A DNA stretch of 29,042 bases from a candidate division WOR-3 bacterium (lineage in GTDB: Bacteria > Hydrothermota > Hydrothermia > Hydrothermales > Hydrothermaceae), in contig JBDRZF010000001.1 in assembly GCA_039803805.1 (NCBI GenBank), positions 1-29,042 of the forward strand. The letters are read 5' to 3'. The position numbers and the translations under genes were made by a program. Position 1 is the stretch's first letter. Every line of letters begins with the position of its first letter. Under the pieces are notes generated by a model. The model had not been told where the DNA came from. It made no database searches and saw nothing but the letters and a program-made list of their open reading frames with translations. Below are positions 202 to 20,749 of this stretch, piece after piece.

Positions 202-2613
202 TTACTTTATCTCACCCAATATCTTAAATTCAACCCTTCTATTTAACTGGTGCTCCTCCTCTGTTTTTGCATTTGGAACAACAGGTCTATCCTCTCCATA
301 TCCAATTGCTATAAGTCTTCTTGCATCTATTCCATGTTTTGTTATAAAGTATGTTCTAACAGCATTCGCTCTTGCATCTGTTAATCTGTAATTGTATGCT
401 CTTGTTCCTCTTTCATCAGCATGACCACCTATCTCAACTTTCATTGTCGGATTATCTTTTAAAACCTGGGCAATTGAATCAAGGATTGGATAGGATTCTG
501 GTCTTATTGTTGCCTTGTTGAAATCAAAATAAATATTTCTGAATGTGAATACCATCTTTTCCTGCAGCATTGGGAAGTTCTTTATGTTCTTCTCCCCTCC
601 TCTTACAGAAACATATGCAGCCTGTGGAATATATTTTGGACCTTTTGGAGGAGGCGGAACTGTTACTTCAAATAAATATGTTCCTGCATATAAAATTATT
701 TCATAAGTTCCGTCCTCTTTACTCTTCATCTCTTTAACAATTTTACCTGTTGAATCCTTTATAACCATATCTGCAACAAGTGCTTCATTCGTTTGGGCAT
801 TATAAACTTTACCAAGGACTATACCTTTATTTGGTTTTAAGAGGATCTCTTTTTCAATTAAAGTTGCCGGCTTCATTATAACAGGTTCTGTTCTTTTATA
901 ATAATCAGGATGCTCAAATATAAATGTATATTCTCCTGCTTCAAGTTGAACCTTTAAAAATCCAAGTGTATCTGCTTTTAATTTTTCCTCTTTATCCTTA
1001 AATTTAACTGTTATTTCAGGCTGAACAGGCTCACCTGTTAATGCATCCTTTATTCTTAAAGCAAGTATTCCATAAGTTGGAACAAGTTTAAATGTTAAAT
1101 CCGTTGTTTTAGCAGCCTTTACTTCTGCAGGCAATTTCTTAGGAAAATATTTCTCTTTTACAACATGAACGATATAATCTCCAGGAGTTAATGAATAGAA
1201 GAAAAATCCGTTCTGGTCAGATGAAATTTTCTTAACAAGTTTATTACCTTTATAAATATTCACTTCAGCGATAAGCGGTTTACCGGTTATAGAATCTTCA
1301 ATTGTTCCCCTGATTTTTCCTTTCATCGGTGTTCTTAATCCCCAGTAAAGACCAAGTGCCTCACCATTGCTTCCATAGAAAAATCCCCTTGAATGGGAAT
1401 AACCAATATCAAAATAGAAATAATCAAAGGAGAAACCAATTCCATAGGAAAGGGAGACTCCTTGATGACCACCAAGAGAACTTCCTATTCTTGTTATAAA
1501 CCACTCTGAAAGAGGGTATTCAAAACCAAGAGAAAGTCTTGGCATTGTTGAACAAAGTGCTCTTTCTTTAAACCCCTGCTCATAATCAAAAAATATTTTC
1601 CACATTTTTTCAGGATTAAAATATGTTATTCCGAGCCTTAAAATAATCGGTAATTTCTTTTTAAATGGATCTATCTCATAAGTGCAAGATGTATCAACTC
1701 CTAAACTTTCTCTTTTCTCTTTGTCTAATAAATTCCATATATTGAAATCTTCAATTCTTCCAAAATGGTAACCTTCCTCTGCATAATGTTCTAAGCCGGG
1801 ATCAATACCAAAAGGAAAACCTGTTCCCCATTTTAAAGAAGAATAAATATTTGAAAATGAAAGTCCTATTGCAAACCTGTCTTTATAATTTGCTCCTAAA
1901 CCTAAATCAAAAGAAACTCCTTCTCCACCAACCCCGTATCTTGCCTTTAATGTATCATATCCCTCTATTTCTCTCCTTCCAGAATTTAATGCTGCTCTGA
2001 AATCAAGGACTTCTGCATAGGCTATTCCAAAAATATAAGAGAATCCAAGCCCATACAGTATTCTTAAATCTTCATCATAATCATACTTATATCCAAAAGA
2101 AATTTTATTTTCTAAATAAGATATTGCTTCTCCATCAAAATCATTTAAATCATATCTTTTGCCGAGTTCATTTCCAAAAAATGAAAGTGACCAGAAATCC
2201 TTTGTCGTCTTTATAAAACTTGCATTAACAACCCTCATCCCAAATCCAAGGTATTTATAAGCAAAGGAAAGCCCTGTTAAATCACTTCCAAGATGAAATT
2301 TAAAAAATCTACCTGGTATTGAATTAAGAAATTCATTTTTATCTTTATAATTTAAAGTATCACCCTTATTTGCCTTATCAGCCATTTTATTCCACCAGGA
2401 TAAAGAGAATGTATTGTTTGTAAATCCTAAAAATCCTGATAAAGGAAATGAAAAGGAAAAAGAAGGATTTAATTTTGAACTTAAAAGTGCGGGATTATAG
2501 AATATTGCCTGCGAGCCATAAGTATATGAAGAACCAAGCCACATTCCTGCATTTGGATAGTTATAATAAGAAAATAAAATATATGGAATGGTTAAAATTA
2601 TGAATTTTTTCAT
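202..2613 (-). CDS. OmpA-family outer-membrane protein: N-terminal beta-barrel (PorV/FadL/DUF5723-like), three carboxypeptidase-regulatory-like repeats, C-terminal OmpA peptidoglycan-binding domain
   Basis: Signal peptide and AGGAGG SD. Barrel N-terminal motif AIFYNPALL and alternating aromatic strands to ~aa 430. Three repeats (GKIRGTIEDSITGKPL, GILALRIKDALTGEPV, GIVLGKVYNAQTNEAL). OmpA motifs NIYFDFNKATI, GHADERG, RANAV, GYGEDRP, NRRVEF. Confidence 0.85.
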   Translation of the reverse strand: MKKFIILTIPYILFSYYNYPNAGMWLGSSYTYGSQAIFYNPALLSSKLNPSFSFSFPLSGFLGFTNNTFSLSWWNKMADKANKGDTLNYKDKNEFLNSIPGRFFKFHLGSDLTGLSFAYKYLGFGMRVVNASFIKTTKDFWSLSFFGNELGKRYDLNDFDGEAISYLENKISFGYKYDYDEDLRILYGLGFSYIFGIAYAEVLDFRAALNSGRREIEGYDTLKARYGVGGEGVSFDLGLGANYKDRFAIGLSFSNIYSSLKWGTGFPFGIDPGLEHYAEEGYHFGRIEDFNIWNLLDKEKRESLGVDTSCTYEIDPFKKKLPIILRLGITYFNPEKMWKIFFDYEQGFKERALCSTMPRLSLGFEYPLSEWFITRIGSSLGGHQGVSLSYGIGFSFDYFYFDIGYSHSRGFFYGSNGEALGLYWGLRTPMKGKIRGTIEDSITGKPLIAEVNIYKGNKLVKKISSDQNGFFFYSLTPGDYIVHVVKEKYFPKKLPAEVKAAKTTDLTFKLVPTYGILALRIKDALTGEPVQPEITVKFKDKEEKLKADTLGFLKVQLEAGEYTFIFEHPDYYKRTEPVIMKPATLIEKEILLKPNKGIVLGKVYNAQTNEALVADMVIKDSTGKIVKEMKSKEDGTYEIILYAGTYLFEVTVPPPPKGPKYIPQAAYVSVRGGEKNIKNFPMLQEKMVFTFRNIYFDFNKATIRPESYPILDSIAQVLKDNPTMKVEIGGHADERGTRAYNYRLTDARANAVRTYFITKHGIDARRLIAIGYGEDRPVVPNAKTEEEHQLNRRVEFKILGEIK

Positions 2614-2624
2614 CTCTCCCTCCT

Positions 2625-3686
2625 TTATTTTTCTTCTAATGTTTCAAGGTCTGTTAAAACTGTTGCTTCAACCCATCCATTAACTCTTAAAGAATCCCTT
2701 GATCTTAAATATGCCTTACCTTGCTTTGGGATTAAAATTTTTATACTGTAAAATACAAGGGAATCCTGAAAAACATTGAAATCATCTTTTGTAAGTTCTA
2801 ATGTATCACTCCATGCTTTAGCATTTATTGATTTACCTGTAACAGTATCCTTTGGAGCAGCATAGAATGGAAAATTGTGTATTACTGAATCAGGTGGCCA
2901 TTCAAGACCTTTTAAATAAATTGTTCCATAAGCCTCTCCCGGTATTGAGTGTCTGAAATTCAAAACAATCCTTATTTTTGCAATTTGCCCTTTCTTTGCT
3001 GCCTTCCTTATTTCCTTTTCTACTTCAAAGGTATCTTCCTTTGTAAAAACTATGTCTCCAAGAAGCTGGGCTGCAAAAAGAACCCTTTTCATTCCCCAGA
3101 TTGTATCTAAATTTGTGCTTCCTGTTTTTATCTTTGTATCTTCAACCCTTATCTGAAGTTTATGTGGACCAAAAGGGAAATTTGGATAAATTATTCTTAT
3201 AATTGTATCTATATTTCCGGGAGAAAATTTGAAATATATTGTATCATCTGACCATATCTTCATTGTATCACCAATTGTATCCCAGCACCATGGAGTAAAT
3301 CTCACATAACCTTTAATTGTGTCTGGTGCATAACCTTTTATTTTCACTTTACCAACCATTGTAAAGAGTAATGAGCGGAAAAGTGACCTCATAGTATCAA
3401 TATCTCTTCCAAGTGACCTTCTTAAACTTGCATAGAATACCTGAAAAGTGGTTGTATCAACATATACATTTGTTTCTGTATGCCTCTGAATCGAAAATAC
3501 AGAATCTATTTCAGGAGAATCATAAATTATCTCATATTTATCAGGCTGATCTTTTAAAATATCATATACGGTTACACAGGAATCACCTATTGGACATCTT
3601 AATGTTATCCACCATTTTGGCTGTTCCTTTGGCACTTTTATACACGATATCCCTATTATTAAAAAAATTACCCAGTATTTTTTCAT
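2625..3686 (-). CDS. Hypothetical lipoprotein, very rich in D-[S/T]-hydrophobic motifs
   Basis: MKK, hydrophobic core and Cys15 (IIGISC, FCB-style lipobox). AGGAGG SD at 3691-3696. Ends 11 nt upstream of the barrel/OmpA gene. Confidence 0.75.
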   Translation of the reverse strand: MKKYWVIFLIIGISCIKVPKEQPKWWITLRCPIGDSCVTVYDILKDQPDKYEIIYDSPEIDSVFSIQRHTETNVYVDTTTFQVFYASLRRSLGRDIDTMRSLFRSLLFTMVGKVKIKGYAPDTIKGYVRFTPWCWDTIGDTMKIWSDDTIYFKFSPGNIDTIIRIIYPNFPFGPHKLQIRVEDTKIKTGSTNLDTIWGMKRVLFAAQLLGDIVFTKEDTFEVEKEIRKAAKKGQIAKIRIVLNFRHSIPGEAYGTIYLKGLEWPPDSVIHNFPFYAAPKDTVTGKSINAKAWSDTLELTKDDFNVFQDSLVFYSIKILIPKQGKAYLRSRDSLRVNGWVEATVLTDLETLEEK

Positions 3687-3708
3687 AAAACCTCCTTTAA
3701 ATAAATTA

Positions 3709-3738
3709 ATTATAATTTAAATAAATTTTAAAAAACAA
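3709..3738 (-). promoter_or_regulatory. Putative sigma70 promoter for the lipoprotein-barrel operon (TTGTTT-18-TATAAT)
   Basis: Minus-strand hexamers at 3738-3733 and 3714-3709 in the divergent intergenic region. The -35 is weak and the region is AT-rich. Confidence 0.45.
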
Positions 3739-3768
3739 TTGAAGCAAAAATAATTTTTAAATTAAAAT
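3739..3768 (+). promoter_or_regulatory. Putative sigma70 promoter for speE-speB (TTGAAG-18-TAAAAT)
   Basis: Hexamers at 3739-3744 and 3763-3768. The ATG follows 9 nt later with no SD. Confidence 0.5.
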
Positions 3769-3777
3769 TATCCTCTT

Positions 3778-4596
3778 ATGAAAGAATTCAGGGAGTATCA
3801 TAAAAAAAACGCAGGTATTTTTTTAAAAATTGATAAAATCCTTTTTAATAAAAATAGCAAATTTCAAAAGATTCTTCTTTTTGAAAATAAAGATTTTGGT
3901 AAAGTTCTTGCCCTTGACAATTTCTTAATGCTAACAGAAAAGGATGAATATTTTTATCATGAGGCAATTGTTCATCCTGCCCTCTCTTTAATTAAAAATC
4001 CTGAAAAAGTTCTTATAATTGGTGGTGGAGACGGAAAGACAGTATATGAAGTTTTAAAGCATGGGGTAAAGGAAATAAATCTTGTTGAGATTGATGAAGA
4101 AGTTATAAAAATTTCTGAAAAAAATTTTAAATGGGGGAAAGTTTTTAAAAATAAGAAAGTTAAAATATTTGTTCAGGATGCCTATGAATTTGTTAAAAGA
4201 ATAAATGAAAAATATGATTTAATAATCGGTGATTTTCCTGACCCTGTTGGTCCTGCAAAAAAACTTTATGAAAAGGAATTTTATTTGAATATTAAAAGAA
4301 TTTTAAAGAAAAAGGGTATTTTAGTAATTCAGGCAGAATCTCCTATTTATCATAAAGAAATTCAGAGAAAAATTTACAATGAAATTAAAGAAATTTTTAA
4401 AATATGTAAGTTTTATTTCTCCCCTGCTCCAACTTATCCAGGTGGTGTATGGCTGTATTTATTTGCCTCTGATTTTTATAACCCTTTAAAAAGTAAAATT
4501 AAAAGGGAAATTAAAAATTTAAAGTTCTATTCTAAAAAAATACATAAAGCAATTTTTGAGATTGGAGAAATTTTATATGAGGTTCCTGGGATATAG
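3778..4596 (+). CDS. speE: Polyamine aminopropyltransferase (spermidine synthase)
   Basis: Motifs SKFQKI, LTEKDEYFYHE, VLIIGGGDG, LVEIDEEV and gatekeeper loop DFPDPVGPAKKLY; length 272 aa. Confidence 0.95.
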   Translation: MKEFREYHKKNAGIFLKIDKILFNKNSKFQKILLFENKDFGKVLALDNFLMLTEKDEYFYHEAIVHPALSLIKNPEKVLIIGGGDGKTVYEVLKHGVKEINLVEIDEEVIKISEKNFKWGKVFKNKKVKIFVQDAYEFVKRINEKYDLIIGDFPDPVGPAKKLYEKEFYLNIKRILKKKGILVIQAESPIYHKEIQRKIYNEIKEIFKICKFYFSPAPTYPGGVWLYLFASDFYNPLKSKIKREIKNLKFYSKKIHKAIFEIGEILYEVPGI

Positions 4597-5392
4597 TAAA
4601 AAAAATTATGATTTAATAATTATTGGTGTTCCCTATGAAAGTGAAGTTGTTTTTAAAAAGGGGGCTTCAATTGCACCAAAAAAAATCAGGGAAGCATCAG
4701 AAGCAATAGAATATTATTCACCTTATCAGAATAAAATCGCAAAGAATTTTTATGATGAAGGAGATATTGAAATAAAAAATTTAAAGAAAAAAGAGATTTT
4801 TAAAAAAATAAAAGAAAAGATAAAAAATATTTTGAAAGATAATAAAAAATTTATTTTAATTGGTGGAGACCATACAATAACTTATCCTGCAGTTCTTGCA
4901 ATTAAAGAATTTTTAAAAGAATTTATATTAATTCATATTGATGCCCATCTTGATAGAAGAAAAATATTTAAGAAAGATGAAATAAACTATGCAACAGTTA
5001 TAAAAAGGATTGAAGAAAAAATAGGTGAAGAAAATGTATTTACTTTTGGCGTAAGAGCAAAAGGTAAAGAGGAAAAAATTACAAAAAATATTTATTTTTT
5101 TAATGTTTATGAAAATATTAAAAAGATTGAAAATATTTTAAAAACAAAAAAATTTTATGTATCAATTGACCTTGATGTCTTGGATCCTGCTTTCTTTCCA
5201 GCAGTTACAAATCCAGAACCGGGAGGAATTGACTTTAAAGAAATTTTAAATACAATAATATTTTTATCAAATTTTAAAGAAAATATAATAGGTTTTGATG
5301 TCGTTGAATATAATCCCTTAGTTTCACAGGAGATGACATGGGCTATCTCTGCAAGCATAATTATAAGGGAAATAATTTGTTCTTTAATTTGA
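4577..5392 (+). CDS. speB: Agmatinase / ureohydrolase
   Basis: Metal ligands GGDH, DAHLD and SIDLDVLDP, plus EPGG and DVVE. Start moved from the track's TTG 4556 to in-frame ATG 4577, which has GGAG ~9 nt upstream. Overlaps the speE end. Confidence 0.92.
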   Translation: MRFLGYSKKNYDLIIIGVPYESEVVFKKGASIAPKKIREASEAIEYYSPYQNKIAKNFYDEGDIEIKNLKKKEIFKKIKEKIKNILKDNKKFILIGGDHTITYPAVLAIKEFLKEFILIHIDAHLDRRKIFKKDEINYATVIKRIEEKIGEENVFTFGVRAKGKEEKITKNIYFFNVYENIKKIENILKTKKFYVSIDLDVLDPAFFPAVTNPEPGGIDFKEILNTIIFLSNFKENIIGFDVVEYNPLVSQEMTWAISASIIIREIICSLI

Positions 5393-5418: not shown

Positions 5419-5433
5419 TAATCACTTCAAAAA

Positions 5434-6360: not shown

Positions 6361-7067
6361 AAAGGGTTTTTGCAGTATATAAAAAGGAATTAAAGAGTTA
6401 TTTTAATTCACCAATAGGTTATATATATCTTGTTGTTTTTCTTGTTTTAACCCAATGGCTATTTTTAAGAAATTTCTTTGTATTTCCTCAAACAACTCTA
6501 AGGGATTTATTTTCTTTATTTCCTATAATCTTTGTTCTTTTCATTCCCGGTCTTACGATGAGATTATGGGCAGAGGAAAGGAAAGTTAATACGATTGAAA
6601 TACTCTTCACTTTACCTTTAAAGGATTATGAAATTTTATTTGGGAAATTTCTATCAGCATTAACATTCTTTGCTCTTTCTTTACTTCTCACATTTTTATT
6701 ACCAATAACACTTTCTTTTATCGGGGACCTTGATTGGGGAGCAACAATTTCAGGATACATAGGAGCACTCTTTCTTGGAGGAGCATACATTTCCCTTGGA
6801 CTTGCCCTTTCAAGTTTTACACAGAACCAGATAGTTGCCTATATCCTTTCTGTTACAATATGCTTTTTATTTTATATAATAGGTGAAGATGCTTTAATTG
6901 CCAATTTCTCAACATTCTGGATAAATATATTTAAATTCTTTTCATTAAAAACAAGATTTGAAAGTATTACAAGAGGGATAATTGATTTAAGGGATATAAT
7001 CTATTATATTTCGTTCATGGGGTTTTTCCTTTATTTAAATATATGGATAATGGATAGGAGAAGATGA
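6357..7067 (+). CDS. gldF: ABC-2 permease, GldF-like
   Basis: About six hydrophobic segments, the motif TMRLWAEERKVNTIEILFTLP and the end RGIIDLRDIIYY. ATGA overlap with gldA. Confidence 0.85.
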   Translation: MKRVFAVYKKELKSYFNSPIGYIYLVVFLVLTQWLFLRNFFVFPQTTLRDLFSLFPIIFVLFIPGLTMRLWAEERKVNTIEILFTLPLKDYEILFGKFLSALTFFALSLLLTFLLPITLSFIGDLDWGATISGYIGALFLGGAYISLGLALSSFTQNQIVAYILSVTICFLFYIIGEDALIANFSTFWINIFKFFSLKTRFESITRGIIDLRDIIYYISFMGFFLYLNIWIMDRRR

Positions 7068-8599
7068 AGAGGGAAAATTTAAATATAATTCTTTCGCTTT
7101 TATTTATTTTTGGAAGTTTAATTTTGCTTAATCTTATTTTAAGGAAACTAATCTTGAGGATTGATTTAACAGAAGATAGAATATATACTTTATCAAATTC
7201 AACAAAAAAAATTCTTTCAGAACTTGATGATATAGTTTCTGTTAAAGCATATTTTTCAAAAAAACTTCCACCCAATCTTGTTCCAGTTAGAAGAGAAGTT
7301 GAAGATATTCTTGAAGAATACAGAACATATTCAAAAGGTAAATTGAGATTTGAATTTATAGATCCTGCAGAAAATAAAGAACTTGAAGGAAAAGTAACAA
7401 GAATGGGAATACCAAAAATACAGATGAATATATTTGAGAAGGATAAGTTGCAAGTGATAGGTGGTTTTCTTGGAATTGCAATTTTTTATAAAGATAAAAG
7501 GGAAGTTATTCCTGTTGTAGAAAGCACTGAAAATATTGAATATGAAATCACTTCAAGACTTTTAAAACTTGCAAAAAAAGAAGAAGTAAAAATTGGTATA
7601 ATGTTTTTATCAAAGGATAAAAAAGATTCTTACACAATTTATAAAGACCAGTTATCAAAGCACTATTCTGTTAGAGAAGTTTCACCAAATCTAATTCCTG
7701 AAGATATAAACCTTTTACTTGTTCTTGGATGGAAAGAACTTGATAAAATGGCTCTTTATAATATAGACCAGCATATAATGAAGGGGAAAAGATGTATATT
7801 TTTAATTGACCCAGTGAATATTACAGAGGAACTTCAATCAAGGGCATTAAGGGAAAAAGATGTTGAATTTTTTAAAAATTATGGTATAAAAGTAGATGTA
7901 AATCTTGTTCAGGATGTCTCTCATGAAATGGCGCCATTCATGCAGGCAGGGATGGCATTCTTTATTCCCTATCCTTACTGGGTTAAAGGAATAAAAAAAT
8001 TCTTTGATAAAAATAGCCCAATAGTAAATAAACTTGAAAATGTTGTTTTTCCATGGTGTTCATCAATTGATACAATTTCGGATGTTTTAAAGGATAAAGA
8101 GGTTACTTTTCTTATTAAAACAACACCACAGGCATGGTCAACAAAATCCTTTTATAATCTATTTCCTGATCCCTTTGCAAAACCTCCAGAAGAAAGAAAA
8201 CAATTTAACCTAAGCATACTTGTCAATGGAAAATTTAAATCTTATTTTACTTCTGAAAGTTTGCCACCGGGTGTTGATACAACAAAATTTTTAAAAGAAA
8301 CAAAAGAACCGGTTTATCTTGCCTTTGTTTCAAATCTTAAATTTATAGATGATAGAATTTTGAATATGTATCCTGAAAACATTTTATTCTTATTAAATTT
8401 ATGTGATGCACTTGGTTTTGGAAAAGAATTAATAGAAATAAGGTCAAGAGGAAAAACTGAAAGACCAATAAAAAATCTTTCTGATTGGCAAAAAAATTTG
8501 TTTAAGTGGGGAAATACCTTTGGAGCAGCAATAATAGTTATTATATTAGGAACATTGAGATTTGTCTATAGAGAAAGAAAGAAATTAAGGAAGGGATAA
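7064..8599 (+). CDS. gldG: GldG-family ABC auxiliary (periplasmic) component
   Basis: N-terminal TM followed by RIDLTEDRIYTLSNST, FEFIDP, EYEIT, a C-terminal NLCDAL...IRSR motif and a C-terminal TM. ATGA overlap with gldF. Confidence 0.85.
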   Translation: MKRENLNIILSLLFIFGSLILLNLILRKLILRIDLTEDRIYTLSNSTKKILSELDDIVSVKAYFSKKLPPNLVPVRREVEDILEEYRTYSKGKLRFEFIDPAENKELEGKVTRMGIPKIQMNIFEKDKLQVIGGFLGIAIFYKDKREVIPVVESTENIEYEITSRLLKLAKKEEVKIGIMFLSKDKKDSYTIYKDQLSKHYSVREVSPNLIPEDINLLLVLGWKELDKMALYNIDQHIMKGKRCIFLIDPVNITEELQSRALREKDVEFFKNYGIKVDVNLVQDVSHEMAPFMQAGMAFFIPYPYWVKGIKKFFDKNSPIVNKLENVVFPWCSSIDTISDVLKDKEVTFLIKTTPQAWSTKSFYNLFPDPFAKPPEERKQFNLSILVNGKFKSYFTSESLPPGVDTTKFLKETKEPVYLAFVSNLKFIDDRILNMYPENILFLLNLCDALGFGKELIEIRSRGKTERPIKNLSDWQKNLFKWGNTFGAAIIVIILGTLRFVYRERKKLRKG

Positions 8600-8600: not shown

Positions 8601-9596
8601 ATGAGGTATAATGCACGCCTTTTTGGAGGAATATTTTTTATACTTCTTTTTATATTTTTAATAATTGAATCTCCATGGTCAAAAAGAATAAGGGCACCAA
8701 AAAAAATAAAAATTACTGATTTTAAAATTTCTGATATTGCAAGGATTGAAATGAAATCAAAGGATAAGGAATTTATCCTTACAAAGAAAGATGAAAAATG
8801 GTTCTTACAGAGATATGATACAATATTCTTACCTGTTGATTCATCAAGGATTGATAGAACATTAAAGGCTTTTGAAAATCTGGAAGGTGAAGTTGTTGGG
8901 ACAAATCCAAAAGATTTTAATCTATATCAGGTTGAAGAGGAAAATGGAATTCATATAAAGGCTTATAATGCAAAGGGGAACACACTCCTTGACTTTTTTG
9001 TAGGTAAAATGGGTCCAGATTTTTCATCAAACTATGTAAGATTGAATAATAAAAATGAAATTGTCCTTGTTGAAAAATATATAAGGGGTGATTTTCCCCT
9101 TTATAAGTTGAGTTGGATAGATAAAAGACTTACAAATTTTAAGGCCGAAGATGTTGTTAAATTCAAGCATAATTTTGGTGAAAATTTTGTTGTTGTTAAA
9201 AAGGATGGAAGGTTTTATTTTGAAAATGATACTGTAAAACTTGATTCAACAAGAACAATTCAGTATTTAAGGATGATAAGCAATATAATTGCAATGGATA
9301 TTATTGATACGATAAGTATAAAAGATGCGGGTCTTTTAGAGCCAGCAGGAATTTTTGATATTGAAATGAAGGATGGCACATATCATTCTATAATATTCGG
9401 AAACAATACAGGAGAAGGTGGTGTATATTATGTAACAAATAAAAATAAAAAATATGTTTATACATTGAGCAAAACATATGTTGATAATGCATTAAAGAAA
9501 ACAAAAGATTACTTCTTAGGAAAAACAGAAGGACCTGAAATCATTGAAAAACCATTTAAAAAATTTGGAAAACCCAAAAAACCTTTAAAAAAATAA
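8601..9596 (+). CDS. DUF4340-domain periplasmic protein
   Basis: N-terminal TM anchor and two internal repeats of the '...W...VD..RI...L..F..L' type. Occupies the typical fourth-gene position after gldG. Confidence 0.7.
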   Translation: MRYNARLFGGIFFILLFIFLIIESPWSKRIRAPKKIKITDFKISDIARIEMKSKDKEFILTKKDEKWFLQRYDTIFLPVDSSRIDRTLKAFENLEGEVVGTNPKDFNLYQVEEENGIHIKAYNAKGNTLLDFFVGKMGPDFSSNYVRLNNKNEIVLVEKYIRGDFPLYKLSWIDKRLTNFKAEDVVKFKHNFGENFVVVKKDGRFYFENDTVKLDSTRTIQYLRMISNIIAMDIIDTISIKDAGLLEPAGIFDIEMKDGTYHSIIFGNNTGEGGVYYVTNKNKKYVYTLSKTYVDNALKKTKDYFLGKTEGPEIIEKPFKKFGKPKKPLKK

Positions 9597-9815
9597 GTAA
9601 TTTTTATTTTCCTTTTTTATTTCTTCATAATAATAATAGAAATTCCCATTTTCATCAATCCAGTAAAGAGTTAAAAAATTTTTATTATCCCAAAACCTTA
9701 TTTTTATTTTAAGAATTTCGCTCTCTTTAATAATATTAACAATCCTTTCAAACCTTGTTTCTTCACTATTTAAAATTGTTATACCTATAAAAAGAATTAT
9801 AAAAATTTTATTCAT
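9585..9815 (-). CDS. Small exported hypothetical protein (76 aa), possibly truncated
   Basis: ATGA overlap with the stop of the T9SS-cargo gene and a signal-like N-terminus MNKIFIILFIGITILNS. The 3' end overlaps the DUF4340 gene by 12 nt. Confidence 0.5.
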   Translation of the reverse strand: MNKIFIILFIGITILNSEETRFERIVNIIKESEILKIKIRFWDNKNFLTLYWIDENGNFYYYYEEIKKENKNYLFF

Positions 9816-11638
9816 TTTAACACCTTTATAAAAGCAATCTTTGAAATTTTTTTATAACTCTTTGTTTTTAAATAAGAAAAGTAAATACCAGAGAATAATT
9901 TTTTGCTGCTTATGTTAAAAATATGCTCACCTTTTGAAAGAAAACCATTATAAATATCTTCAACTTTTCTACCTGAAACATCATAAAGTTTTAAAGAAAT
10001 CTCATCCTGCTCTGGTAAAGAAAGATATAAATATAGATTTCCCAGGCTAAAATAAGGATAAAATTTGAGAACATAATTTGTATCAGGCGGATTTGTATCA
10101 GGAATAACTGTATCTGCCTGATAGATACAGAGAAGATCCCTATGAGCATAGATGTAATAATTTTTATAAATAATTGGGAAGAAACGGCTTGGCTCACATG
10201 TGGGGAATTCAGGAAGTAATGTGGTATCAAAAACTATTCCATTTAAAGAATTGAAAACATAAATATAATCTACATTTGCCAGCCAACCTACTCCATTTTT
10301 TGTAAACAATGGAGAATTAGCTTCTCCACCATTTGTATCCTTTGGGCTTAAATAAATATCAAAATATAAATCCCCTGTCCTTGAATCGAAACATTTAAGC
10401 CTTGAAAAGATTGTGTCACCAGCACCATATTCTCCATAAGAAACCCATATTTTTTTATTATAAAAATGGACAGGAATCCAAAGAGGGTGAGGAAAGCCGA
10501 TTATTTTTAATTGTGGAATGCCTGAAAATAAATTCACTCCAAATAATGTATCATAGGCAAAAAAGAAAACTTTATTGTCATGAATAGAGAGTTCTCCAAT
10601 TTCAAAGGGTGCCTCAAAATTCCATAAAGGGTTACCTGTTAAAGCATCTATTGCATTTAAAACATTGTTGGGGTATGCATGATAAATTCTCTCATTGTAA
10701 TATGCAGGTGAATAAAAACCATCAGAAGAAACTGACCATAAAAATTTACCCCTGTAAGTAAATAAACAAATATTCTTATCACACCTCCGAACATAAACAA
10801 AAGTATCCACTACAACAGGTTGATATTGAATAGTCCGTAATATTTTTGCCCATTTTAAATTTCCTGTAAATGGGTCAAGAGCATAAAAAGTTGTATCTGA
10901 ATCAGGAGTAAAACCTATACAGGTGCCAACAAAGAGAATTGAATCACCCTCACAAAGTCCGGAAGTCATCGTATTTGCTGTAACAATTCTTTCCCATAGA
11001 ATTTCACCTGTTTTAATATCAAAGGCACAGATAACATTTAAATCATGAGGAGGATCAGGCAAAAAAAGCATATCATGAGCTATACAACCGGAAACTTCGG
11101 TAATCTGTGCACCTGAACCTTCCCAGTTCTTCATCCATTTAAAATTAAGCGGTGGATATAAAGGAAAAGGGTAATAACCACTATGTTGAGCATCATAACC
11201 ACTCATTCTCCATGCATACTTATCAGGTCCCTGATAAGTTTTTATAAAAGAAGGATTTATATAATGCCCTTTTTCTATCTCAACTAAATTTTCTTTTTTA
11301 AAAGATTTTTCTTTAATTAAAAAATCAGCAATTTGAAGATTTCTACCTGAAATAAAATACTCCTTTTTACTTTTATCAATATAAAATACAATTAATTTCA
11401 AATTCCCATCTTTCCTCCATTTCTTCTTTGTAACCCATATGAACTTGTCTTTTAAATCTTTCTCAAAATCAGAATTTCTATACTCTCCAACAATATAATT
11501 CTTACCCCTATATTCATAAATTAATTCTATTTTTGAAACTCCTTTTCCTAAATGATAATCTATTTTAACACCTGTTGAATCAGGAGATAAATAACCTTTT
11601 ACATAAAAATTAAAGAGAAATATTATTAATAAGTTCAT
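9812..11638 (-). CDS. PQQ-like (BamB-type) beta-propeller protein with C-terminal T9SS type A sorting domain
   Basis: WRMSGYDAQHSGY start motif; repeats AFDIKTGEILWE, ALDPFTGNLKW, AIDALTGNPLW, CFDSRTGDLYF; Pro/Asp/Thr linker; CTD LKLYDVSGRKV...LFSGIYFSYL...KISKIAFIK. Confidence 0.8.
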   Translation of the reverse strand: MNLLIIFLFNFYVKGYLSPDSTGVKIDYHLGKGVSKIELIYEYRGKNYIVGEYRNSDFEKDLKDKFIWVTKKKWRKDGNLKLIVFYIDKSKKEYFISGRNLQIADFLIKEKSFKKENLVEIEKGHYINPSFIKTYQGPDKYAWRMSGYDAQHSGYYPFPLYPPLNFKWMKNWEGSGAQITEVSGCIAHDMLFLPDPPHDLNVICAFDIKTGEILWERIVTANTMTSGLCEGDSILFVGTCIGFTPDSDTTFYALDPFTGNLKWAKILRTIQYQPVVVDTFVYVRRCDKNICLFTYRGKFLWSVSSDGFYSPAYYNERIYHAYPNNVLNAIDALTGNPLWNFEAPFEIGELSIHDNKVFFFAYDTLFGVNLFSGIPQLKIIGFPHPLWIPVHFYNKKIWVSYGEYGAGDTIFSRLKCFDSRTGDLYFDIYLSPKDTNGGEANSPLFTKNGVGWLANVDYIYVFNSLNGIVFDTTLLPEFPTCEPSRFFPIIYKNYYIYAHRDLLCIYQADTVIPDTNPPDTNYVLKFYPYFSLGNLYLYLSLPEQDEISLKLYDVSGRKVEDIYNGFLSKGEHIFNISSKKLFSGIYFSYLKTKSYKKISKIAFIKVLK

Positions 11639-14523: not shown

Positions 14524-15600
14524 TTAATAACTTGTTATCTCTTTAAATTTTTTCTCATCAAATTCCTTTAAAAAGTTTATACAAAGATTTAATGCATTAT
14601 CAAAATCCTTTCTATGTATCATTGAATTAAAACCATGAACATACCTTGAGGGTATCCCTATTATACTTGATGGAACACCTTCCTTAAAAAGATGAACCCT
14701 TCCTGTATCATATCCACCTCTTATAACTGTTACAAGATGATATTTAATCTTATACTTTTCAGCAACCTTAACAAGAAAATCCCTTAATTTTTTATGAGAA
14801 ACCATTGTATAATCAAGGGAAACAATTGCAGCACCTCCTCCAAGTTTTGCCTCTGTTTCTGTTTTTGCACCGGGTGTATCCTCTGTTAATGATACATCAA
14901 GGGCAATAGCAATATCAGGTTCAAAAACCCATGGAGATGTTGCAGCACCTCTTAAACCAACTTCTTCCTGAACTGTTGCAACAAAATAGGCAGTTCCCGG
15001 TATTTTTTTATTCTTTATTTCTTCTAAAATTCTTATTAAAAGAGCACATCCAACCCTATCATCAAATGCCTTTGCCATATAAATATTTTTATTTCCAAGA
15101 ATCTTGAATTCAGAAACAGGAATAATAGGATCCCCTATCTTTATTCCGAGTTTTTTCTGAGGATCAAATTTTTTCTCTTCAACACCAAAATCTATATAAA
15201 GGTCATCAATATCCGGCAACTTTTGAGCCTCTTCTTTCTTTAAAAGATGAGGTGGAACTGCTCCAATAACCCCATAAAACTCACCTTTATCAGTTTTAAC
15301 TTTAACCCTCTGCCCTATAAGTGTTGCTGACCACCATCCACCTAATGGAGCAAATTTAACATATCCCTTTGTAAATCCCTTAACCATTAAACCTATTTCA
15401 TCCATATGAGCAAAAAAACCAATTCTTGGTCTTTCTTTTTCTCCTTTTTTAACAGCAATTATTGAACCAAGTTTATCATATAGAATTTCATCTGCAAATT
15501 TTTTAAATTCATTCTTTATAATTTCTCTCACCTCATCCTCAAAACCTGGAAGTCCTGAGGCTTCTGTTATATCCTTTAAAAGTTTTTCAGTCCTATCCAC
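14524..15600 (-). CDS. M42-family (TET-like) aminopeptidase
   Basis: Dinuclear-site motifs AHMDEIG, AFDDRVG, QEEVGLRGA, ALDV and RYVHG. GTG start with GGAGG SD. Confidence 0.92.
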   Translation of the reverse strand: MDRTEKLLKDITEASGLPGFEDEVREIIKNEFKKFADEILYDKLGSIIAVKKGEKERPRIGFFAHMDEIGLMVKGFTKGYVKFAPLGGWWSATLIGQRVKVKTDKGEFYGVIGAVPPHLLKKEEAQKLPDIDDLYIDFGVEEKKFDPQKKLGIKIGDPIIPVSEFKILGNKNIYMAKAFDDRVGCALLIRILEEIKNKKIPGTAYFVATVQEEVGLRGAATSPWVFEPDIAIALDVSLTEDTPGAKTETEAKLGGGAAIVSLDYTMVSHKKLRDFLVKVAEKYKIKYHLVTVIRGGYDTGRVHLFKEGVPSSIIGIPSRYVHGFNSMIHRKDFDNALNLCINFLKEFDEKKFKEITSY

Positions 15601-15613
15601 AATTTCCTCCTTT

Positions 15614-15994
15614 TTAAAATTTTTTCTTTAAAAAAAATTTAAAACTTTCTTTATCTATTAAAAAGGATAAATTTAAAGTTGTATCCTTTGGGAAATTATA
15701 AAAATGGGCTGAAACATAGGCATCGGCAATTGAATATATATGAACCATAAGATAAATTATTCCATTATACAAAATTTTCCTTTCATATGTTGTGTCAGGA
15801 ATCCTTTCTTCTTTTCTTAAATCATAAATTCTTTTAAATTCATGAATAAGATAAATTTCAGTTGCTCCAATTAAAGCACCTTTAATATAATTCTTTGTAT
15901 AGAACTGACCCCCACCTGGAAATAAAAAGGAGAGCCATGCTGAAAGAACAGGGGATTTAGAATAAAGAAAAAGGATAAGGATTAATTTTGTCAT
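15614..15994 (-). CDS. Small membrane protein, TM2/DUF5683-like
   Basis: Motif KSPVLSAWLSFLFPGGGQFYTKNYIKG...SIADAY. Start moved to ATG 15994 because the track's TTG at 16033 coincides with a -35 hexamer. Confidence 0.7.
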   Translation of the reverse strand: MTKLILILFLYSKSPVLSAWLSFLFPGGGQFYTKNYIKGALIGATEIYLIHEFKRIYDLRKEERIPDTTYERKILYNGIIYLMVHIYSIADAYVSAHFYNFPKDTTLNLSFLIDKESFKFFLKKKF

Positions 15995-16003
15995 TAGAAT
16001 ATT

Positions 16004-16033
16004 ATTATAAACAAATCTATAAGATTTATACAA
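16004..16033 (-). promoter_or_regulatory. Putative sigma70 promoter for the DUF5683-M42-dapB-ACAD-lipA operon (TTGTAT-18-TATAAT)
   Basis: Hexamers at 16033-16028 and 16009-16004. The ATG is 9 nt downstream with no SD. Confidence 0.55.
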
Positions 16034-16046
16034 TCCAAAATTAATT

Positions 16047-16073
16047 AGAAACCGTTTTTTATTTCTAATTGTC
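16047..16073 (+). promoter_or_regulatory. Candidate ECF-sigma promoter for the TonB-dependent receptor (AGAAAC-N17-TGTC), overlapping a 9-bp inverted repeat
   Basis: Resembles the TGAAAC-N16/17-CGTA/CGTC consensus with a T-rich spacer. IR AATTAGAAA (16043-16051) / TTTCTAATT (16062-16070). Confidence 0.45.
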
Positions 16074-16082
16074 TAAAATAAT

Positions 16083-18476
16083 GTGAAGATGGGAGAGTAT
16101 TTAATTTTAAATTTAATTTTGTTTAACATTTTAATTTCGCAGGTTCCAAGAGAAAGATTTGAAGGAAAAATAAAAGGAACAATAATTGATAAGGAGACAA
16201 ATGAGCCTCTTGAATATGCAAGTATTTCTTTATTCAGGGAAAAGGATTCAACATTTATAATAGGGGTATTATCAGATAAAAATGGTGAATTTTTAATAAA
16301 TGTTGAAAGACCAGGGATTTATTTTTTAAGAATAACATTTCTTGGTTATGAGAAAAGGGAAATACATTCATTAAGAATAACTCCTGAAAACAGAATTTTA
16401 GATATTGGCAAAGTATATCTTGAGGTTTCTGGAATTTTATTAAAAACACAAGAAGTAATTGCTGAACCACTTCCAATAACTTATAAGGTTGATAAAAAAG
16501 TTATAGAAGTAAGTAAAATGGGATTTTTATCAGGGAATGCAGTTGATATATTAAAGAATGTTCCATCAGTGAGTGTTGATATTGAAGGGAATGTAAAATT
16601 GAGGGGAAGTGAAAATTTTTTACTCTATATAGATGGAAGACAGTCTCTTCTTGACCCAAACGATGCATTAAAACAAATCCCTGCATCATCAATTGAAAAA
16701 ATTGAAATAATAACAAATCCATCTGCAAGATATGAAGCAGAAGGAACTTCCGGAATAATAAATATAATTCTTAAAAAGGGGAAAATTGAAGGTTTAAATG
16801 GAATTATAAATTCAAGTATAGGAGTTAATGAAAAATACGGAGGAGATTTTATTTTGAATTATAAAAAAGGAAAAATAAACACATTTATAAGTTTGAATTA
16901 TAATAAAAGAAAATTTTCAGAAAAGATAAATTCAGAAAGGGAAATAAATGAGAAAAAAATAAATTCTGATGGTTCTTCATCAAGAATATTCAATCCATTC
17001 AATATAAGAACAGGTATTGATTTAAACATTAAAGAAAAAAATTTATTTGGTGTTGGATTAAATTATGGAATATGGAATATGCAAAATAGGAATTTCTCAG
17101 AATACAATGAAATTTTTGATACACAGATTATAAATTATAAAACAGAGGGATATTTTAAAAGAAAGGGTCCTTTCTTTGAAATTGTTTTAAATGACTTACA
17201 AAAATTTAAAAAAGAGGAAGATAAACTTTTTACAGAATTTGTATACTCCTATAGAGAGGGAAATGAAGAAAATAGAACTTATAAAATGGATAGTTTGGAT
17301 ATGATATTGAATGGAAACAAGAGAATTGAAGAAGGAACTTCAAATAGATTTTCAGGGAGAGCAGAATATACAAAATCTTTTAAAGAAAATTTTAAATTTG
17401 AAACAGGGTTTAGAGGGGAATATGGGATAAGTAAAGATATGAGCAATTTCTATAATTATAAAGATGGAAATTTTGAAATTGTTGATAGTTTTTGCCATAG
17501 TGTAAAATATCTCAATAATATTCAGGCAATTTATTCTTTATTATCAGGAGAGTTTAAGAATACAGGATATCAAATTGGTTTAAGGATTGAATATAATAAT
17601 AGAAAAATAGAGTATGCTGATACAAATTTAAAATATATCTTTGAAAAAATTGATTATTTTCCAACAATTCATTTTTCCCATAGATTTTTAAAATTAAGGG
17701 AAACATTTTTAAGTTATTCAAGAAGGATTTCAAGACCAAGAGATTTCTGGCTTGAACCACTTTTAACATGGATGGACCCTTATAATTTAAGAAAAGGGAA
17801 TCCTGATTTAAAACCAGAATATATTGATAATTTTGAAACAGGTATAACAACACCATTTTTGAAAGGTTCTTTAACATTTGAAACATACTATAGAATAACT
17901 TATAATAAATTTGAAAGAATAAGAATTCCCTATGGAGATTCTGCTTTCCTTCATACAGTTATTAATTCAGGAAAATTATTCTCTTATGGAGGAGAAATAT
18001 CCTTTAATAAAAATATTTTTAAGTTAATGAATATGAATCTTGTTCTTGATTTCTATGGTTATAAATTTAAAGGAAAGATTTATGATGAAAAAATTACAAA
18101 AGGGGATATAAATTATAATTTAAGGTTTAATTCAAATATTTTTATGCCCTTTTCTTCTCGCTTACAATTAATCTTTGTTTATCATAGTCCACCGGTTTCG
18201 GCACAGGGAAAAGAAAAGGAATTTATTACCTTTGATTTTTCAATTCAAAAATTCTTCTTAAACAAAAATTTATCCCTCAATTTAGAAGTAAGAAATCTTT
18301 TTAATACTTTAAAAAGGGGATTTGAAATAAAAGAAGAAAATTATAAGTATATTCAAACATTTAAGCAGGAATCAGGAGTATTAATACTTACAATGAGTTA
18401 TAACTTTAACAACTATAAACCTGAAAGAAAGATTAAAAAAGAGATAGAAGAAGAAAGAGAAGAATTTGAATATTAA
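16083..18476 (+). CDS. TonB-dependent outer-membrane receptor with N-terminal carboxypeptidase-regulatory-like domain
   Basis: GKIKGTIIDKETNEPLEYASI, plug motifs VDILKNVPSVSVD and IEKIEIITNPSARYEAEGTSGIINIILKK, barrel motifs SYSRRISRP and GNPDLKPE, and last strand LTMSYNF followed by a short acidic tail. Confidence 0.9.
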   Translation: MKMGEYLILNLILFNILISQVPRERFEGKIKGTIIDKETNEPLEYASISLFREKDSTFIIGVLSDKNGEFLINVERPGIYFLRITFLGYEKREIHSLRITPENRILDIGKVYLEVSGILLKTQEVIAEPLPITYKVDKKVIEVSKMGFLSGNAVDILKNVPSVSVDIEGNVKLRGSENFLLYIDGRQSLLDPNDALKQIPASSIEKIEIITNPSARYEAEGTSGIINIILKKGKIEGLNGIINSSIGVNEKYGGDFILNYKKGKINTFISLNYNKRKFSEKINSEREINEKKINSDGSSSRIFNPFNIRTGIDLNIKEKNLFGVGLNYGIWNMQNRNFSEYNEIFDTQIINYKTEGYFKRKGPFFEIVLNDLQKFKKEEDKLFTEFVYSYREGNEENRTYKMDSLDMILNGNKRIEEGTSNRFSGRAEYTKSFKENFKFETGFRGEYGISKDMSNFYNYKDGNFEIVDSFCHSVKYLNNIQAIYSLLSGEFKNTGYQIGLRIEYNNRKIEYADTNLKYIFEKIDYFPTIHFSHRFLKLRETFLSYSRRISRPRDFWLEPLLTWMDPYNLRKGNPDLKPEYIDNFETGITTPFLKGSLTFETYYRITYNKFERIRIPYGDSAFLHTVINSGKLFSYGGEISFNKNIFKLMNMNLVLDFYGYKFKGKIYDEKITKGDINYNLRFNSNIFMPFSSRLQLIFVYHSPPVSAQGKEKEFITFDFSIQKFFLNKNLSLNLEVRNLFNTLKRGFEIKEENYKYIQTFKQESGVLILTMSYNFNNYKPERKIKKEIEEEREEFEY

Positions 18477-18487
18477 ATTCTAAAATT

Positions 18488-20749
18488 CTAAAATTCTAAT
18501 AAAAATGGCAGCATATAAAGATAGTTTTCATTTAAAAGAAAAGGTGAATTTAAACTTGTTTTTTCAAAGGTTTTTAAAGGGCTCCACCATTTTATTTCAG
18601 GGTATTGAATTACTTTTACATCTCCTTTAATCTTTGCGATTCTTTTTGCTTCTTCAATTGCATCAAGGATACCACCTGTTTCATCAATCAATTTTATATT
18701 TTTTGCATCCTCACCTGAATATATCCTTCCCTGTCCAAGGGAATCAACTTTTTCAAAGGGAATATTTCTTGAAATACTTACCCTTTTAACAAACTCTTTG
18801 TATCCCCATTCAATCTCTTTTTTGAAAATTTCTCTTTCTTTTTCATCAAATTTCCTTGTAAAGGTGAAAGCATCTGCATGTTCCCTTGTTTTTACCCTGT
18901 CAAACTTTATTCCAAATTTTTCAAAGAATTCTTTAAGAACAAATTTTCCACCAAGTATGCCTATTGAACCTGTTAATGTTGTTTTATCTGCATAAATCTT
19001 ATTTGCAATACAGGATATATAATATCCACCTGAAGCAGCAACCTGACCCATTGAAACAACAACTGGTTTTTTCTCCTTTAACCTTCTTATTGCATCCCAT
19101 ATGATTTCAGAGGCAAGAGCAGAACCACCAGGGGAGTTAACCCTGCATACAACTGCCTTTATGCTCTTATCCTTCTCAATCTTTTCTATCAATTTGCTCA
19201 TAGTTTCAGAACCAAGATTTTTGCCACCAATTATAGGGATTGGATTTTTTGAACTCTCACCAACTATTATACTTCCTTCCATTGACAATATTGCAATTTT
19301 CGGTCTTTCATCTTTAAATTCCCTCATCAAATATTTCTTTTTCAAAATCCTATCAGAATCAAAAATTAAAGGTTTTTTACCATACCATCTTTTAATGAGT
19401 TCTGGAACATCCCTTTCAAATCCTTCTTCATCACAGAGTCCTTCTTTTACTGCATTTTCTGAATTGAAATACCCTTTATCCATAATTTCATTTATTTTTT
19501 CTTTTGATAAATTTCTACCTTCATTAATATTTTTAATTATCAAATTTTCAACATCTTTCAAAAATTCAATTCTCTGCTCTTTATCCTCAGGTGACATATC
19601 TTCCCTTAAAAGTGGCTCAACAGCAGATTTGTATTTACCAATTCTTTCAAACTCTGGTTCAATACCTATTTTTTCAAACATCTTTTTTAAATATATGTTT
19701 TCCATATAAAGACCGGGGATAAAAACTTCACCATTTGGAACTATAATTATTTTATCAGATATTGAAGCAATCATATAGTTTATGATTCCAAAACTTTCTC
19801 CAATTGACACAATCTTTTTACCCTTTGATTTTATCTCTTTTAATAAATTATAAATTTCTTCTGCCTGAGAAGGAGTTAAACTTGGATTTTTAAAAACAAT
19901 TATTATTCCTTCAACATATTTTTCTTTTTCTATTTTCTTTAATTCACTGAGTAAATCATAAAAGGATTTTTTTAATTTAAATTTTAAAAATCCTTCAAAT
20001 TCCCTTTCCTCAGGATAATCACCTTTAAGTTCTATCCTTACCCATTTTTTCCTTTCAGGGAAAATCGTTGGATATATTTCCCTTGATAAAATAAATCCAC
20101 CTGAATATCTTGTTTTTTCCTTTTCTTTAAATCTACCTGTAAAGAATGTTTTTATATTTCCAAAAGAAATTTCTATTCCACCAAAATATCTTTTAAGAGA
20201 ATTTCTTTCAATTCTTGCCCCTCCATAAACATATATTCCATCAAATATTTCATAAATAGCCTGATAAAGACTATAATTTGTTATTCTCCAGAAATTAAAA
20301 TCTGCTGAAAATGTTATTCTATCAGTAAATGGTCTTAAAGATGCGCTTAATGTTAAAGAAGTATCGTAATTTTGAATTAAACTAAAAGTTCCACCAAATC
20401 TTAAAATTTTAAATGGAGAAAAGATGAAGCCAAACTTATTTTCCTTTAAATCACCAAAGGAATAGGAATAACCAATTGAAAAATTTTCACCAAAGGGAAT
20501 ACCAATTGAAAAGGAATATATCTCTGTTTTAAGATAATCTGTAAAGGAAAAACCAAAATTATTAAAAGAAGAGGAAAGATAATATATGGGTTTATCTTTA
20601 GTTTCTCTTATATTGAAATAAAATTCATATCCGGGCTGAATTCCAAGACCTGCAGGATTTAAAATTGCTCCTGAGCTTCTTATAGATGTTGATACAGAAT
20701 TAGAAAATGGTGAAAATAAAATATTTAGATATAAAATTAAACTATACAT
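18488..20749 (-). CDS. sppA: Signal peptide peptidase SppA (67K tandem type) with an extra N-terminal ~220-aa beta-barrel-like domain
   Basis: Catalytic Lys motif GKYKSAVE, RVNSPGGS, catalytic Ser motif SMGQVAASGGYYIS, TGSIGI and GQGRIYSG. Start placed at ATG 20749 (AGGAGG 5 nt upstream) rather than GTG 20755. Confidence 0.9.
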   Translation of the reverse strand: MYSLILYLNILFSPFSNSVSTSIRSSGAILNPAGLGIQPGYEFYFNIRETKDKPIYYLSSSFNNFGFSFTDYLKTEIYSFSIGIPFGENFSIGYSYSFGDLKENKFGFIFSPFKILRFGGTFSLIQNYDTSLTLSASLRPFTDRITFSADFNFWRITNYSLYQAIYEIFDGIYVYGGARIERNSLKRYFGGIEISFGNIKTFFTGRFKEKEKTRYSGGFILSREIYPTIFPERKKWVRIELKGDYPEEREFEGFLKFKLKKSFYDLLSELKKIEKEKYVEGIIIVFKNPSLTPSQAEEIYNLLKEIKSKGKKIVSIGESFGIINYMIASISDKIIIVPNGEVFIPGLYMENIYLKKMFEKIGIEPEFERIGKYKSAVEPLLREDMSPEDKEQRIEFLKDVENLIIKNINEGRNLSKEKINEIMDKGYFNSENAVKEGLCDEEGFERDVPELIKRWYGKKPLIFDSDRILKKKYLMREFKDERPKIAILSMEGSIIVGESSKNPIPIIGGKNLGSETMSKLIEKIEKDKSIKAVVCRVNSPGGSALASEIIWDAIRRLKEKKPVVVSMGQVAASGGYYISCIANKIYADKTTLTGSIGILGGKFVLKEFFEKFGIKFDRVKTREHADAFTFTRKFDEKEREIFKKEIEWGYKEFVKRVSISRNIPFEKVDSLGQGRIYSGEDAKNIKLIDETGGILDAIEEAKRIAKIKGDVKVIQYPEIKWWSPLKTFEKTSLNSPFLLNENYLYMLPFLLEF

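Follow-up and report, generated by a model that had tools for sequence, protein, structure and literature searches.

A D-(S/T)-hydrophobic sequon footprint in the exported proteins of candidate division WOR-3 suggests general O-glycosylation of the Bacteroidota type

O-glycosylation at D-S/T-hydrophobic sequons is treated as a hallmark "unique" to Bacteroidota, and in Bacteroidia the system has been experimentally proven. The origin of the system and its transferase have been standing questions since 2009. In a 2025 review the sequon ratio has been computed for all GTDB genera, and Fibrobacterota were explicitly flagged (PMC12871550, section "Full extent of structural diversity"). Here the same tripeptide, D-[ST]-[AILVMT] (the sequon), was examined in a candidate division WOR-3 bacterium. 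The window is the whole stretch of 29,042 nucleotides that was analyzed (JBDRZF010000001.1), which is contig 1 of a metagenome-assembled genome (MAG) referred to as G000. An earlier note on the window, made from its letters, had proposed that the excess of this tripeptide in exported proteins reflects a periplasmic O-glycosylation pathway. The results reported below suggest that WOR-3 probably runs a general O-glycosylation of exported proteins of the Bacteroidota type.

The lineage of the host was examined using SecA, which is encoded in the window. Its best named match, at 98% identity, comes from a "candidate division WOR-3 bacterium", and the next matches, at 67–72% identity, belong to Candidatus Hydrothermales, Hydrothermae and Hydrothermia. 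Identity to SecA of named Bacteroidota is 42–53% (Bacteroidia 42–51%, Ignavibacteria/Melioribacter 50–52%). The host is therefore a member of WOR-3, class Hydrothermia, and not of Bacteroidota, as the earlier note had guessed.

G000 contains 1.37 Mb in 240 contigs with 30% guanine plus cytosine (GC) and is 75.6% complete. The 1320 open reading frames (ORFs) called were sorted with our own Kyte-Doolittle heuristic for signal peptides and transmembrane (TM) segments into 276 exported, 633 cytoplasmic and 179 multi-pass proteins, the remainder being ambiguous. Exported proteins were scored after removal of the first 35 amino acids. Results are given as observed over expected (O/E), with the expected number taken from per-protein shuffles. 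Exported proteins contain 584 sequons compared with 191±13 in the shuffled sequences (O/E 3.06, z 29), and at least one sequon is found in 168/276 of them (61%). Cytoplasmic proteins contain 340 compared with 258 expected (O/E 1.32). Clearly, the signal first noticed in one contig survives a genome-wide shuffle test, as well as the comparison with control motifs such as E-[ST]-x and [ST]-D-x, both of which had been named in advance as checks. Ten three-position control motifs had an O/E of 0.58–1.06 in exported proteins. Among them, with h standing for the hydrophobic third residue, are D[ST][non-AILVMT] (0.95), E[ST]h (0.58), N[ST]h (0.81), G[ST]h (1.00), K[ST]h (0.76), [ST]Dh (0.91), h[ST]D (1.06) and D[AG]h (0.98). 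The sole control above 1.06 was [AILVMT]D[ST] (1.67), which is raised because it contains the D[ST] pair. The PglB-type sequon [DE]-x-N-x-[ST] was not enriched in G000, with an O/E of 0.84 for exported and 0.77 for cytoplasmic proteins.

The sequon in exported proteins was then resolved residue by residue. Asp alone is enriched at position 1 (O/E 3.04; Glu 0.58), and Ser and Thr are equally used at position 2. At position 3 the O/E values are L 4.35, I 3.45, V 2.80, C 2.76, T 2.19, F 2.08, M 1.93, A 1.36 and S 1.34, and D, E, K and Y are depleted. Measured Bacteroidota glycosites have L, I, V, T, A, S or M at position 3 with occasional G, F and C, and Glu at position 1 is not tolerated in B. 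fragilis (PMC12871550). The lead of L over I over V and the Asp requirement in G000 are therefore the same as in measured Bacteroidota glycosites. Flanking residues beyond the three-residue motif are near background. The excess is present in 174 proteins without paralogues (O/E 3.21), in paralogue clusters (2.92) and across all length classes (2.3–4.4). A repeat or domain artefact is ruled out by the paralogue-free set, the length classes and the background flanks. As a separate observation, E-[ST]-[AILVMT] is depleted in exported proteins (132 vs 229 expected, O/E 0.58, z -8). The value is 0.53 in pooled Hydrothermia exported proteins, and the depletion is mild in cytoplasmic proteins (0.81). 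It may reflect replacement of Glu by Asp or avoidance of a non-productive mimic.

Relatives and control lineages were examined with the same pipeline. All 11 other WOR-3 genomes sampled, from 10 families and with 30–54% GC, carry the footprint, with an exported O/E of 1.5–3.2 each. The pooled values are 175/76 = 2.31 (z 14.6) for Hydrothermia and 160/64 = 2.50 (z 12.4) for the other WOR-3 families, with 1.07–1.26 for cytoplasmic proteins of the pooled sets. G004, a genome of the same family as G000 that is better assembled and of which 460 kb were examined, gave 215/93 = 2.31 (z 15.2) in exported and 1.09 in cytoplasmic proteins. Bacteroidia, with 51 loci pooled, gave 372/254 = 1.46 (z 7.1) in exported and 0.91 in cytoplasmic proteins. 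Per genome, the Bacteroidia range over 1.10–1.69, with Bacteroides gallinarum at 1.28, Pedobacter at 1.69 and a Flavobacteriaceae MAG at 1.10. Compared with Bacteroidia, WOR-3 has a footprint about twice as strong (2.3–3.1 vs 1.1–1.7). Ignavibacteria and Melioribacteraceae gave 3.29 and 2.28, respectively.

Marinimicrobia gave 67/61 = 1.10 in 47 exported proteins, a TA06 MAG gave 15/12 in 18 exported proteins, and the pooled negatives without Zixibacteria gave approximately 115/110, or about 1.05. Since controls remain at about 1.05–1.10, the signal is not manufactured by the pipeline. A Zixibacteria MAG gave 42/17 = 2.46 (z 6.1), with control motifs also raised to 1.1–1.5 in that genome. Gemmatimonadota (72% GC) were dropped as a negative control because ORF and signal-peptide calling yields too few exported proteins. 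The Flavobacteriaceae MAG is nearly null in a phylum that glycosylates, so absence of the footprint is not proof that the system is absent. In the TA06 MAG, E-[ST]-[AILVMT] occurs at 30/18 (z 3.4), while the Asp sequon shows no such excess; in so small a sample this could be chance or a variant sequon.

Conservation of the sequon was examined in 48 pairs of exported orthologues from G004 and G000, which share 68% identity. Of 92 sequons, 72 (78%) still align with a sequon, compared with 164/362 (45%) for the ten classes of control tripeptides (Fisher p 1e-8). A per-protein sign test gave 22 vs 3 (p 1.6e-4). At 26/72 kept sites a residue has changed inside the motif, Ser being exchanged with Thr or one hydrophobic residue with another. 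Among 91 pairs of cytoplasmic orthologues, the sequon persists at 63% of sites vs 55% for controls (p 0.4), with 3 motif-preserving changes. Independently of the excess, this conservation indicates that the tripeptide has a functional reader, and that it is read exclusively outside the cytoplasm.

Genes in the window were identified by Pfam scans and their sequons counted by script (Table 1). The gene labels of the earlier note agree with the Pfam identities, and its hand counts with those of the script, for the 39 sequons in 8 exported proteins as well as for the 6 in cytoplasmic proteins (acyl-CoA dehydrogenase 2, RtcB 2, SecA 1, HD-domain fragment 1, the rest 0). No glycosyltransferase was found among the window proteins by Pfam scans, as had also been stated. 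Against per-protein shuffles the exported set gave 38/8.1 (z 11.1), or 24/6.9 (z 6.7) without the lipoprotein that carries 14 sequons, and the cytoplasmic set gave 6 observed with 6.6 expected. The enrichment is therefore real, but the "7-fold" difference originally claimed compares raw densities and is driven up by the lipoprotein. Over the whole genome, raw densities differ 3.3-fold (6.00 sequons per 1000 amino acids in exported vs 1.82 in cytoplasmic proteins), and the composition-corrected ratio is approximately 2.3-fold. The scarcity of D[ST] in SecA, offered as an illustration, is also correct (one D[ST] among 52 Asp) but anecdotal, with cytoplasmic D[ST]x at an O/E of 1.01.

In the window lipoprotein, Ser or Thr follows 18/27 Asp residues. 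Homologues with 22–34% identity were found in 19/41 Hydrothermia genomes and carry 8–15 sequons vs 1.1–1.9 expected. In the family alignment four columns have a sequon in 12–15 of the 17 sequences. These near-invariant columns are spaced by approximately 40–55 residues, a regularity that may point to an internally repeated fold, for instance one of propeller blades; in such a fold D-T-I could also have a structural role.

Table 1. Genes of the window, candidate machinery genes elsewhere in G000 (C) and a neighbour of the TMEM260-like gene in two Hydrothermia genomes (L)
Feature	Sequence	Position	Strand	Sequons	Remarks
Outer-membrane protein, CarboxypepD_reg repeats and C-terminal OmpA domain	window	202..2613	-	6	
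Lipoprotein, lipobox ...GISC, no Pfam family	window	2625..3686	-	14	353 aa; ~1.4 sequons expected
GldG-like ABC-transporter auxiliary protein (ABC_transp_aux, DUF7088)	window	7064..8599	+	2	TM anchors at N- and C-terminus
DUF4340 protein	window	8601..9596	+	4	N-terminal anchor
PQQ-like beta-propeller protein with type IX secretion system (T9SS) C-terminal sorting domain	window	9812..11638	-	7	S/T after 13/38 Asp
DUF5683 membrane protein	window	15614..16033	-	2	
OMP_b-brl_3 / TonB-dependent-receptor-like outer-membrane barrel	window	16083..18476	+	3	
SppA (peptidase S49)	window	18488..20755	-	1	signal-like N-terminus
Contrast set, eight genes	window	20829..29041	-	4	~2,700 aa; seven cytoplasmic members: RtcB, class IV aminotransferase, thioredoxin-like, CBS/CorC, NMD3-like, SecA, HD-domain fragment
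Small YgaP-like inner-membrane protein	window	23152-23436	-		non-cytoplasmic member of the contrast set
Further cytoplasmic proteins	window				SpeE, arginase-family enzyme, ABC ATPase, LipA, acyl-CoA dehydrogenase, DapB, M42 peptidase
TM and tetratricopeptide repeat (TPR) protein	C213	1058-3049			cut by contig end
Wzy_C protein	C165	698-2068			Pfam
Second Wzy_C protein	C101	462-1913			Pfam
Wzx-type flippase and adjoining Wzy_C protein, both genes	C165	698-3600			divergent; 3.7-kb contig
Gene of ~375 aa directly downstream of TMEM260-like gene	L105	301-1428			
Gene of ~375 aa directly downstream of TMEM260-like gene	L102	2955-4079			

The T9SS is commonly regarded as restricted to Bacteroidota. 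Its C-terminal sorting domain (Por_Secre_tail), present in the window PQQ-like protein, has approximately 50 matches in G000, and matches were found in 20/20 relatives searched. In a TA06 contig the PorV gene adjoins secA.

The 20 largest multi-pass proteins of G000 were scanned with Pfam for candidate machinery. One of these is the TM and TPR protein of Table 1, homologues of which were found in 61/61 WOR-3 genomes sampled. Full-length WOR-3 copies are approximately 850–990 amino acids long and contain PF11028, "protein O-mannosyl-transferase TMEM260-like", followed by C-terminal TPRs; the PF11028 matches in relatives have E values of 3e-30 and 7e-32. In a phmmer search the membrane part matched the human TMEM260 structure 9rql_A (E 6.5e-8). 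D52, H67, R264, Y267, R355 and the catalytic base D441 are essential in human TMEM260 (10.64898/2026.03.17.711096). By alignment, all six residues are kept in 5/5 full-length WOR-3 homologues, as are the four that are covered by the G000 fragment. The family was found in 81/81 Bacteroidota genomes sampled across the phylum and, among 14 well-known control genomes, in Bacteroides thetaiotaomicron only. It is also present in TA06, a lineage without the footprint. The Zixibacteria MAG has six TMEM260-like matches. In two Hydrothermia genomes of different families, a gene of approximately 375 amino acids with faint biotin-lipoyl/RnfC_N-like barrel-sandwich matches lies directly downstream of the TMEM260-like gene.

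A second GT-C family was also considered. P. gingivalis does glycosylate. YfhO, an in-silico candidate for the Bacteroidota oligosaccharyltransferase (bioRxiv 10.64898/2026.07.27.740950), was reported absent from this species by its proposers (10.64898/2026.07.27.740950). It exceeds the cut-off in 59/81 Bacteroidota and has weak matches in 35/41 WOR-3 genomes. TMEM260-like proteins were found in 4/5 Bacteroidales MAGs that lack a YfhO match over the cut-off. Phylogenetic profiling of the candidate transferases was non-discriminating. Because both families occur in Marinimicrobia, where absence of the footprint is uninformative, profiles alone do not decide between them.

The TMEM260-like (DUF2723) protein is favoured because it occurs in all WOR-3 and Bacteroidota genomes sampled and keeps the six residues, and because YfhO is patchier. 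We tentatively propose that this GT-C protein with TPRs might be the sequon-reading enzyme that adds the first sugar, mannose, throughout the Fibrobacteres-Chlorobi-Bacteroidetes (FCB) group including Bacteroidota and WOR-3, although this assignment is still doubtful. The Bacteroidota O-glycan is reported to have mannose in a shared trisaccharide at the reducing end (PMC12871550). No assigned function for a bacterial DUF2723 protein was found in the literature searched.

Two further multi-pass proteins of G000 are Wzy_C proteins. Wzy_C is also the domain of WaaL and Wzy. It was found in 9/14 control genomes and is therefore not diagnostic. A genome search for a flippase/glycosyltransferase locus had been suggested by the earlier note. 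It recovered a Wzx-type flippase next to one of the Wzy_C genes, but neither the equivalog flippase nor a locus resembling LFG.

These results lead to the following proposal. Sec-translocated proteins would be modified at the periplasmic face of the inner membrane, on the Ser or Thr of a D-(S/T)-(L/I/V/T/...) sequon. The most likely enzyme would be the conserved TMEM260-like GT-C with its TPR "fingers", using a polyprenyl-phosphate sugar donor; a YfhO-like GT-C would be the alternative. Sequons would accumulate and persist in exported proteins because the modification is useful, the usual guess being stability or protease resistance. What has been demonstrated is an excess that is specific to the sequon, confined to exported proteins, spread across the phylum and under purifying selection; from this we infer that the motif reader is a glycosyltransferase.

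Several observations weigh against O-glycosylation in WOR-3. All of the evidence is a sequence footprint, and it is as a footprint that the O-glycosylation interpretation of the earlier note is supported by the shuffle test, the control motifs and the control lineages. In multi-pass proteins, with TM segments from crude Kyte-Doolittle windows and topology from the positive-inside rule, periplasmic loops gave 56/34.5 = 1.62 and cytoplasmic loops 48/36.1 = 1.33, a difference that has the expected sign but is weak. Between WOR-3 families, in 25 pairs of exported proteins with 47% identity, the sequon is kept at 25% of sites vs 9–30% for controls, so that no signal of conservation is seen at this distance. 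YfhO was not found in G000, a 75.6% complete MAG. TMEM260-like and YfhO-like proteins are both present in Marinimicrobia, which lack the footprint. The O-oligosaccharyltransferase of the Bacteroidota reference system has itself not been identified (PMC12871550), and homology of its machinery with that of WOR-3 is therefore not provable. The G000 Wzx scored 99 bits against NCBIfam NF058658, "O-glycosylation flippase", which has a cut-off of 720, and is thus no equivalog. Five relatives contain no homologue of it at E<=1e-10. A variable outer-glycan or O-antigen locus would show just this, and the result suggests a strain-variable glycan locus. A search outward from Wzx recognised no LFG-like locus (metG, wzx, glycosyltransferases) in the 240 contigs of G000; LFG is not conserved across Bacteroidota either (PMC12871550).

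We therefore wondered what else could produce such a footprint. The periplasmic reader of the sequon might not be a glycosyltransferase but, for example, a chaperone, a protease, a sorting factor or an enzyme that makes a different modification, and the resemblance to Bacteroidota would then be coincidental. From the footprint and its selection we learn that the motif is important in exported proteins, but not what reads it, and the failure to find an LFG-type locus or an equivalog flippase in G000 is in keeping with such a reader. To our knowledge no other system reads D-S/T-hydrophobic, which counts against this explanation. We consider it unlikely, as the residues preferred at positions 1 and 3 are largely those of measured Bacteroidota glycosites (PMC12871550), the lineage lies within the same FCB group, and it has a TMEM260-like homologue with intact catalytic residues in common with all 81 Bacteroidota sampled.

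The footprint could also be a relic of an ancestral FCB glycosylation system that is inactive in G000. The failure to find YfhO, the TMEM260-like gene seen only as a contig-end fragment and the loss of sequon positions at deep divergence are what a relic would leave. This explanation is harder still to sustain, since purifying selection acts at family-level divergence, with 26 motif-preserving substitutions, and does so in exported proteins only. Furthermore, Bacteroidia have an active system but a weaker footprint, and the fragment keeps all four catalytic residues that it covers.

That the excess is a by-product of beta-rich, D/S/T-rich envelope proteins, in which Asx/ST turns precede strands, or arises from the gene calling or the heuristic is hardly credible: exported proteins are indeed richer in D, S and T than other proteins, the classifier is home-made and the G000 cytoplasmic set is itself raised to 1.32, but per-protein shuffles preserve composition, the reversed, swapped and neighbouring versions of the motif show no excess (about 1 or lower), misclassification would only dilute the signal (the cytoplasmic value is 1.09 in the better assembled G004), and the beta-turn effect that the earlier note had named as its refutation is excluded by negative lineages with the same kinds of envelope proteins (Marinimicrobia 1.10 in 47 exported proteins, pooled negatives about 1.05).

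The earlier note also regarded such a pathway as new for WOR-3-like bacteria. WOR-3 is not named in PMC12871550 or in the searched literature, where WOR-3, Hydrothermae, Zixibacteria and Ignavibacteria are nowhere combined with O-glycosylation. A footprint outside Bacteroidota as such, however, had already been published (PMC12871550). What is new here is a phylum-wide WOR-3 footprint stronger than that of Bacteroidia, purifying selection on the sequon, and a TMEM260-like GT-C as a universal candidate transferase. A selected footprint in WOR-3 would place the origin of the system nearer the base of the FCB group or imply transfer between phyla. Both the one Zixibacteria genome examined (2.46) and the published flag on Fibrobacterota agree with this; Marinimicrobia and the small TA06 sample show nothing. 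The WOR-3 result is useful both for dating the system and for the transferase question, and the small genomes of WOR-3 (1.4–2.3 Mb in the class sampled), together with the strong signal, make good material for narrowing the missing enzymes. In these uncultured and often thermophilic bacteria, the majority of envelope proteins would then probably be glycosylated, which bears on metaproteomics, structure prediction and heterologous expression.

Of the known systems, the PglL/PilO type of Neisseria, Burkholderia and Acinetobacter is likewise a general O-glycosylation of periplasmic and membrane proteins, and G000 has two Wzy_C-domain proteins and a Wzx flippase. PglL/PilO-type systems target low-complexity Ala/Pro/Ser-rich regions and have no strict D-S/T-h sequon. 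Eukaryotic O-mannosylation by TMEM260, TMTC1-4 and POMT/PMT is resembled through the WOR-3 protein, with its PF11028 domain, C-terminal TPRs and all six essential TMEM260 residues. Human TMEM260 also reads its sequon on extended chains during translocation. It differs in that its sequon is long and specific to IPT domains, and the bacterial donor would be a sugar on polyprenyl (undecaprenyl) phosphate. The Fibrobacterota footprint is likewise a motif enrichment in non-cytoplasmic proteins of a non-Bacteroidota FCB phylum, known from sequence evidence. It belongs to another, sister phylum, and the WOR-3 case adds conservation of the motif and a candidate enzyme.

The system of Bacteroidota is the closest. 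The differences are the WOR-3 host with its footprint about twice as strong as in Bacteroidia, the metG-wzx-glycosyltransferase (LFG) locus and equivalog flippase that were not recognised in G000, and the glycan, which is known in Bacteroidota, the WOR-3 case being known from its sequences. The acceptor is the same, D-(S/T)-(A/I/L/V/M/T) with obligatory Asp and a third position led by L, I and V in the WOR-3 footprint. Restriction to non-cytoplasmic proteins is shared (exported 3.06 vs cytoplasmic 1.32 in G000, 2.31 vs 1.09 in G004), and the sequon occurs in 61% of G000 exported proteins compared with "about half" in Bacteroidota. G000 also has an envelope of the FCB group, with T9SS cargo, Gld and DUF5683 proteins, and the TMEM260-like GT-C is universal in both.

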